Of a stretch of DNA of 44,004 nt, positions 23,359-24,255 are shown in pieces (positions within the stretch are counted from its first letter, which is position 1; each line of letters opens with the position of its first letter). Under the pieces are notes generated by a model. That model made no database searches, was not told where the DNA came from, and saw only the letters and a program-made list of their open reading frames with translations. The position numbers and the translations under genes are program-made. The DNA is from Escherichia coli (GTDB lineage: Bacteria; Pseudomonadota; Gammaproteobacteria; Enterobacterales; Enterobacteriaceae): NCBI RefSeq assembly GCF_003334765.1, contig NZ_QOWT01000033.1. One strand, 5' to 3'.

Positions 23359-24255
23359 TCACTTAAGAGGAGCGGCACTATGTTTCACAGGATAACGGGT
23401 TTTTGATATCTTAACCGACCTCGGCCTTGATGGTCGGGGGCGTTTTGTTATGAACACCACTTCCAGAGCACCCCGAAGATGCTCCAGTCGTTTCGGGATG
23501 GTCCCTGGTGACGCCGTGTTTCCCAGCTCTATCATTTCTGATGCGATATTCTTCCACGCAGGCAGTAGCCAGTGGCGGTTACAACCCTTCTGGTTCAGCG
23601 TCAGCAGCAGGTCTTCGCTGTAAAAAAGTTTATCAAACAACGTAATAGAGTTATCCGGGATGGTGGCGAGCATGGAGTGGGCCAGCACAGTTTCGCTCTG
23701 CCGGTAAGGTGCGGTCACGGCATTCAGCAGAATGTGACTTCCCAGGTTCATTAAGGCCACCAGACGCATAACCGGGTAGGCGTTCTGCCGCTTAGTGGAT
23801 GTGTTGGCAGACCCATAATATTCACGCAGCTCGGGTTTATCAGGTGTCCTGAACTGTGCGCCATCAATGGCAAAAAGTTGCAGGCCGTGCCAGTCATCCT
23901 TCAGGTAACGTTCCGCGCCCCTGTCTGTGCGGTCTGGCGGAAGAGCCATTCCACTGGGGCGGCCCCCACGCGCTGACGCGCCTGGGTGACAGCGCTGCGG
24001 GCCAGCAGGTTCATCCCCGCTTCGCCATCCGCGCTCAGGTTCAGACGGCGAACAACATCGGTAATTGGCTCATTGCACCACCATCCAGATAACCATGTCC
24101 CCCGGTAAACGACGGCGGCGAACGGTCGCATGAGCAGAAAGCGTCAGGCAGTGTTGTATCCACTCGGTGGGAAGGTGTTCTGCAAATAGTTGTGCAGAGG
24201 GCGGAGGCATAAGCGGATGGTCACTGAAATCGAGCAGATCATTGAGAAGTGGCAT
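23359..24255 (-). pseudogene. insZ: IS4-family transposase remnant, frameshifted and truncated (insZ-like)
   Basis: Three consecutive minus-strand ORF fragments in different frames (24070..24255, 23901..24131, 23359..23949) each resemble successive parts of an IS4-type transposase (for example TVRRRRLPGDMVIW, ARSAVTQARQRVG, LFAIDGAQFRTPDKPE). Confidence 0.8.

Follow-up and report, generated by a model that had tools for sequence, protein, structure and literature searches.

Introduction

The closest described system is the insertion sequence ISZ' with its transposase pseudogene insZ, which has already been annotated in Escherichia coli K-12 (PMC3032704; PMC3465305). Transposases of the IS4 family contain a DDE triad with the spacing D(60-110)D(100-150)E, and elements of the IS4 subgroup carry the end signature -AATR--------WTW---- and generate duplications of 10-13 bp (PMC2266710, Table 1 for the ends). 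The IS701, ISH3 and IS1634 families are without the complete YREK motif, the 10-bp duplication and the AATR...WTW ends, and their duplications are 4-6 bp long (PMC2266710).

In the present study, we analysed a window of 44,004 nucleotides of E. coli DNA (contig NZ_QOWT01000033.1, assembly GCF_003334765.1), in which a preliminary description had noticed a decayed IS4-family transposase between tdk and adhE. This observation was borne out, as both the fragments and an intact homologue matched IS4 models. Sequence comparison revealed that positions 20933-27933 of the window were byte-identical to 1292000-1299000 of NC_000913.3 (E. coli K-12 MG1655). The feature was the same, base for base, as ISZ'/insZ (b4573) of MG1655, and the pseudogene coordinates coincided (23359-24255 in the window). 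In the NC_000913.3 annotation, 23359-24338 is given as "insertion sequence: ISZ", and the same interval is labelled "IS4 family transposase, frameshifted" by PGAP in K-12 derivatives. The feature is the known dead IS4-type element ISZ', and its recognition here is an ordinary rediscovery. We are nearly certain that 23350-24338 is a defective remnant of an insertion sequence of the IS4 subgroup (IS4 family, DDE), and we met no weighty evidence to the contrary. It is of little importance in itself to have confirmed a pseudogene that is textbook knowledge for the best-studied of all bacterial genomes; what was added is a 9-bp correction of the left end, an account of how this copy died and a population picture of one terminator hairpin. 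Of these, the corrected end is only mildly new, as is the recurrent use of the terminator by two elements of the IS4 subgroup.

The second of these elements is IS4 itself (insG), which belongs to the same subgroup as the ISZ-type element. The Nterm_IS4 plus DDE_Tnp_1 architecture was common to both, the D-D and D-E spacings were nearly identical (76/103 in the ISZ-type element against 75/104 in IS4), and the YxxRWEIE motif was found in both. The transposase-proximal ends were 94% identical over 35 bp, and base 1 (C in ISZ', T in IS4) was the sole difference between the ISZ' end CAATGCCGATCAGTTAAG and the IS4 end TAATGCCGATCAGTTAAG. Like the ISZ-type element, IS4 had a hairpin terminator shortly before the start of the transposase gene, as judged from a fold of the copy L003, and both preferred targets consisting of an A-run, a GC hairpin and a T-run. 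In contrast, the two transposases were only 39% identical, the DNA could not be aligned over most of its length, and the duplications were 10-11 bp for the ISZ-type element and 12-14 bp for IS4.

Results and Discussion

Boundaries of the element

The preliminary description had left the extent of the relic undefined, as terminal repeats had not been seen. That statement is superseded by a pair of 18-bp inverted repeats and a 10-bp duplication, which delimit the element (Table 1). A repeat finder returned an inverted pair at 23327-23367 and 24321-24361 together with a perfect 10-bp direct repeat, CCCAGAAGGG. The two ends of 18 bp each, CAATGCCGTTCACTTAAG and CAATGCCGATCAGTTAAG, were identical at 16 of the 18 positions; in both, positions 2-5 read AATG and positions 14-16 read TTA, as in the signature of the IS4 subgroup. 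The same ends bounded the intact copies of 1429-1430 bp. The MG1655 annotation of ISZ' starts at the stop codon of the pseudogene (23359) and omits the 9 bp CAATGCCGT at window positions 23350-23358. The true left end of ISZ' lies at 23350, 9 bp outside the annotated boundary.

As is typical of the IS4 family, the target duplication spanned about one helical turn, with 10 bp in the relic and 10-11 bp in the intact copies. The value in the relic lay at the low end of the 10-13 bp range of the subgroup, whose marked target-arm specificity was matched by the hairpin targets described below. The size of the relic (989 bp) fell short of the 1400-1650 bp of the subgroup, whereas the intact relatives measured 1429-1430 bp. 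This shortfall was fully explained by three mapped deletions.

Table 1. Coordinates of the ISZ' relic, its parts and its surroundings (window positions unless a sequence handle is given).
Feature	Position	Strand	Basis or remark
hns	21442-21855	-	
tdk	22460-23077	+	
Target-site duplication, left copy, CCCAGAAGGG	23340..23349	.	perfect direct repeat
Whole ISZ' relic, 989 bp	23350..24338	-	deletion derivative of a 1430-bp IS4-subgroup element; global alignment
Terminal inverted repeat, transposase-distal, CAATGCCGTTCACTTAAG	23350..23367	+	inverted repeat
insZ transposase pseudogene (b4573), three reading-frame fragments	23359..24255	-	
Terminator-like hairpin and T-run, inward-facing, antisense to the transposase gene	23419..23449	+	terminator scan; fold
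Junction of the 423-bp in-frame deletion	23534..23547	.	one hybrid repeat copy in the relic
1-bp deletion, frameshift, codon about 118	23921..23922	.	intact GCCCCATGTCTG vs relic GCCCCTGTCTG
17-bp deletion, frameshift, codons about 61-66	24075..24076	.	
Terminator-like 10-bp hairpin, then UUUUCUU	24261..24286	-	terminator scan; RNA fold
Terminal inverted repeat, transposase-proximal, CAATGCCGATCAGTTAAG read on the minus strand	24321..24338	-	inverted repeat
Target-site duplication, right copy, CCCAGAAGGG	24339..24348	.	perfect direct repeat
adhE	24379-27054	-	
IS4 proper at the tdk/adhE hairpin in other lineages	L003:1272-2416, L006:2773-3917, L005:2773-4198		

Decay of the transposase gene

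The minus-strand open reading frames 24255..24070, 24131..23901 and 23949..23359, which had been described as three frame-shifted fragments of a shortened transposase, proved to be exactly that. In tblastn comparisons they jointly aligned, with E = 5e-132 and 2e-34, to an intact 445-aa IS4-family transposase from the E. coli plasmid L002. On its own, the 196-aa fragment matched the NCBIfam model NF033592, "IS4 family transposase", with E = 2.9e-23, and the 76-aa fragment matched the same model with E = 2.7e-7. The similarity to IS4-family transposases was significant, so the outcome that would have spoken against the preliminary description did not arise. The 61-aa N-terminal fragment alone gave no NCBIfam family match, yet it fell within the alignment with the intact homologue.

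To locate the lesions, the relic was globally aligned to the intact copy L002:1501-2930. It was observed that identity was 93-98% per block and that the relic had three deletions, amounting to 441 bp in total. In the intact copy, the direct repeats TTTCTGTCGCGATA and TTTCTGCCGCGATA, which are identical at 13 of 14 positions, lie 423 bp apart. The corresponding 423-bp deletion removed residues from about 244 to 386, including the motif with YREK and Glu318. The other two deletions together remove 18 bases, and for this reason fragments 1 and 3 lie in one frame while the middle fragment is shifted.

The intact relative is a single 445-aa reading frame with D137, D214 and E318 (spacings of 76 and 103), and its Y(2)R(3)E(6)K motif, YHSRWEIEVGFRNLK, occupies residues 311-325. 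The triad and the motif were complete in this protein. In the relic, both aspartates were kept and the glutamate was deleted, and the YREK motif lay inside the 423-bp deletion; the fragments matched the family profile. The intact transposase gene that an autonomous element requires was absent from the relic, which had two frameshifts and had lost the catalytic glutamate. Because of the three lesions, the relic is catalytically dead, twice over.

Intact relatives and the age of the relic

The intact relative contained the Pfam domains Nterm_IS4 and DDE_Tnp_1 and scored 263 bits against NF033592 (curated cutoff 115). Among the 5426 complete E. coli genomes, 162 contained intact copies, which were also found on plasmids of Escherichia, Salmonella and Klebsiella. 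The intact 1430-bp elements, which in E. coli reside both on plasmids and on chromosomes (e.g., those encoding WP_029488891.1 and WP_213850925.1), shared the ends of the ISZ' relic, kept the 441 bp missing from it and encoded the full 445-aa transposase. They were 99% alike among themselves, and their DNA matched that of the relic at 94% across the 989 bases common to both. The relic was more similar still (97%) to a truncated copy from a Salmonella IncX1 plasmid. From the copy counts in an earlier study (PMC3032704), we had guessed that the intact relative was the ISfinder element ISSd1; this was rejected, as ISSd1 belongs to the IS3 family (PMC6963479). The only source name in the protein cluster of the intact transposase was "IS4 family transposase".

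The substitutions were polarised with two outgroups, the pColV copy and then the closer Salmonella plasmid copy. When the pColV copy served as outgroup, 12 nonsynonymous and 26 synonymous changes fell on the deep branch towards the relic (pN/pS 0.15), and therefore most of the divergence arose at a time when the lineage had a functional enzyme. When the Salmonella copy was taken as sister, 9 nonsynonymous and 4 synonymous changes fell on the terminal branch (13 changes, small counts). This ratio is close to the neutral expectation of 3:1, and by this reckoning agrees with decay and not with domestication. Selection on the relic itself, which the value of 0.15 might have suggested, was rejected, as re-rooting with the Salmonella copy assigned the signal to the history before the insertion. 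Regarding the earlier statement that the insertion is old, most of the 6% divergence from active copies predates the decay and accumulated in an ancestor under purifying selection.

In the 5426 genomes, no undeleted ISZ-type copy was present at the tdk/adhE site; a lone match, at exactly 80% coverage, lay at another locus. A search of the GTDB species representatives (one genome per species) for the exact junction between element and flank gave no evidence of the relic outside E. coli. Four junction matches were discounted, namely one on a contaminant scaffold and three chance matches in GC-rich coding DNA without an IS end. The scaffold, NZ_GG667584.1 (L019; Corynebacterium striatum ATCC 6940 SCAFFOLD66), is 241 bp long and was 100% identical to window positions 24160-24400, which span the ISZ'/adhE junction. 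This scaffold almost certainly entered the assembly as a contaminant from E. coli.

Alternative explanations

Two other readings of the locus were weighed against that of a dead IS4-subgroup element. The similarity might reflect another DDE family (IS701, IS1634 or IS5) and not IS4 in the strict sense, and weak secondary NCBIfam matches to the IS701, IS1634 and ISH3 models were indeed obtained (E from 1e-6 to 1e-2). These matches were far below the curated cutoffs, whereas NF033592 was far above its own, and the complete YREK motif, the 10-bp duplication and the AATR...WTW ends were all present. On these comparisons, we regard assignment to another family as already refuted, with a negligible chance of being correct. 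The relic might instead have been domesticated, either with the 196-aa reading frame (23949..23359) acting as a trans-dominant inhibitor of IS4-type transposition, a role that would be analogous to that of the Inh protein of Tn5, or with the element kept as a terminator for adhE. This reading could draw on several features: the 196-aa reading frame starts with ATG and keeps D137, D214 and the C-terminal region, the 423-bp deletion is in frame, and ISZ' bears a terminator-like hairpin in the adhE orientation. The relic was also more than 99.5% identical in the 10 full-length carriers among the matches listed, out of 1884, but such identity is expected from vertical descent within one species. 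In addition, insZ was up-regulated along with its neighbours in one microarray study (PMC3465305), a co-regulation explained by read-through from the neighbouring genes. Against domestication, the 9 nonsynonymous and 4 synonymous changes of the terminal branch did not point to purifying selection, no ribosome-binding site was evident upstream of the internal ATG, and 2182 genomes do well with an empty site. Taken with this evidence, domestication of the relic is very improbable.

State of the target hairpin across E. coli

The empty site was read from genomes without the element (L004 and L007). They contained AAAAAAACGGCCCCAGAAGGGGCCGTTTAT, with a single copy of CCCAGAAGGG inside an uninterrupted hairpin. 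On the adhE strand, RNA folding of the empty site gave a 10-bp GC stem followed by U7 (-21.8 kcal/mol, z = -6.1). This structure is a textbook intrinsic terminator that is bidirectional in form. ISZ' sits in the loop of this hairpin, and the duplication takes in the loop and three pairs of the stem on either side. In the A-run beside the left half of the interrupted terminator, K-12 reads AAAAAATACGG (T at window position 23336) and the empty-site genomes read AAAAAAACGG; the difference is a small change in a half-terminator that is now orphaned.

The distribution of these states was determined in the 5426 complete E. coli genomes. The relic was present as in the window in 1884 genomes, and the uninterrupted hairpin was found in 2182, including O157:H7 strains. 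IS4 proper occupied the same hairpin in 1131 genomes, with the 12-bp duplication CCCCAGAAGGGG. The results indicated that the ISZ' insertion is a polymorphism within E. coli. The preliminary description had spoken of an old insertion in core sequence; this holds only in part, given that 1884 of the 5426 genomes carry it and 2182 retain an intact empty site. As a natural marker, the hairpin may be convenient for telling E. coli lineages apart.

The examined copies of IS4 proper at this hairpin were of two kinds. In the B2-type strains examined (ATCC 11775 and an O25:H4 strain), the copy was a 1145-bp relic, 98% identical to IS4, with a 281-bp deletion between GAAGCG microhomologies. In at least one strain, L005, IS4 was intact and 99.65% identical to its K-12 counterpart, and its flank was 100% identical to an empty-site genome; therefore this copy is a recent, independent insertion. 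Two elements with transposases of 39% identity have thus struck the tdk/adhE hairpin no fewer than three times. All three insertions, namely that of the ISZ-type element with its 10-bp duplication, the old IS4 with the 281-bp deletion and the recent intact IS4 (12-bp duplications each), lay in the hairpin loop and were centred on the dyad.

Proposed history of the insertion

The identity of the element, its ends, its duplication, the empty site, the lesions and the distribution are established, and the following course of events would connect them. An intact element of about 1430 bp would have transposed into the centre of the bidirectional tdk/adhE terminator hairpin, presumably by the cut-and-paste route that its family membership suggests, and staggered cuts 10 bp apart would have duplicated CCCAGAAGGG. 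Slippage or recombination between the two 14-bp direct repeats may then have deleted 141 codons, those for the YREK motif and the catalytic glutamate among them. The reading frame was broken by the deletions of 17 bp and 1 bp. The resulting relic, with both ends and without a transposase, is immobile unless a related enzyme acts in trans, and roughly one third of E. coli pass it on by vertical descent.

Target preference of the IS4-subgroup elements

An AAA-N20-TTT consensus was proposed for IS4 in older work, and the picture of hairpin targets agrees with it. We reconstructed five distinct target sites for the ISZ-type element and four for IS4. Of these, four ISZ-type sites and three IS4 sites were hairpins with a GC stem between an A-run and a T-run (z between -2.6 and -6.7 on folding), and in each such hairpin the duplication was centred on the dyad. 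The tdk/adhE terminator may be a recurrent landing pad, and target capture by recognition of terminator-like palindromes (A-run, GC stem, T-run) may be ancestral and conserved in the subgroup; we consider the chances that this is so to be evenly balanced. Each element also carries a hairpin terminator of its own, which would take the place of the one that it destroyed. The hairpin is a small data point on the target choice of IS4-type elements.

Two further IS4 copies were observed with flanks of the form AAAACG...CGTTTT, like those of the tdk/adhE hairpin. One (L010:1824-3249) lies inside the coding sequence of the siderophore receptor fiu, and the other (L011:1824-3249) in the raiA/bamD intergenic region.

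Hairpins of the element and transcription of adhE and tdk

Two terminator-like hairpins face inward in the relic (Table 1). The one at 23419-23449 folded with -17.6 kcal/mol (z = -2.7) and is kept in the intact copy. The other, at 24286-24261, lies directly upstream of the transposase ATG (24255); going downstream from adhE, it is the first structure that strongly resembles a terminator. In the adhE-proximal half of the split hairpin, folding left only a remnant stem of 4 bp, and the U-run was lost. We infer from these folds that read-through from adhE would now stop at the IS-borne hairpin. The two inward-facing hairpins probably shield the transposase gene against transcription that starts outside the element and, as a side effect, would replace the terminator that was destroyed. 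The terminator scan also found a hairpin belonging to tdk just past its stop codon (23104-23123 plus a T-run), and tdk is probably unaffected by the insertion of ISZ'. An Rfam scan of 22900-24600 returned only a sub-threshold match to ctRNA_p42d at 24252-24288 (33 bits against a gathering score of 50). Membership in that family was rejected, and the match was taken as generic similarity to a hairpin or terminator.

Other ISZ-type copies

A second frameshifted ISZ-type relic was observed on chromosomes of the O157:H7 type (L008:2024-2747), near nanM and a sialate O-acetylesterase gene. It is independent of the K-12 relic, to which it was about 94% identical. One O157:H7 strain was among the empty-site matches listed, and its tdk/adhE site was empty. 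An unannotated 86-bp terminal fragment of the ISZ type (L025:1501-1586, about 92% identity) apparently occurs alone on hundreds of E. coli IncF/ColV plasmids. At the same place, pColV-C1 (L023:301-1705) carries a nearly complete but diverged ISZ-type copy (90.5%). On the IncFIB/ColV plasmids, the fragment or copy adjoins a gene for an efflux outer-membrane subunit.
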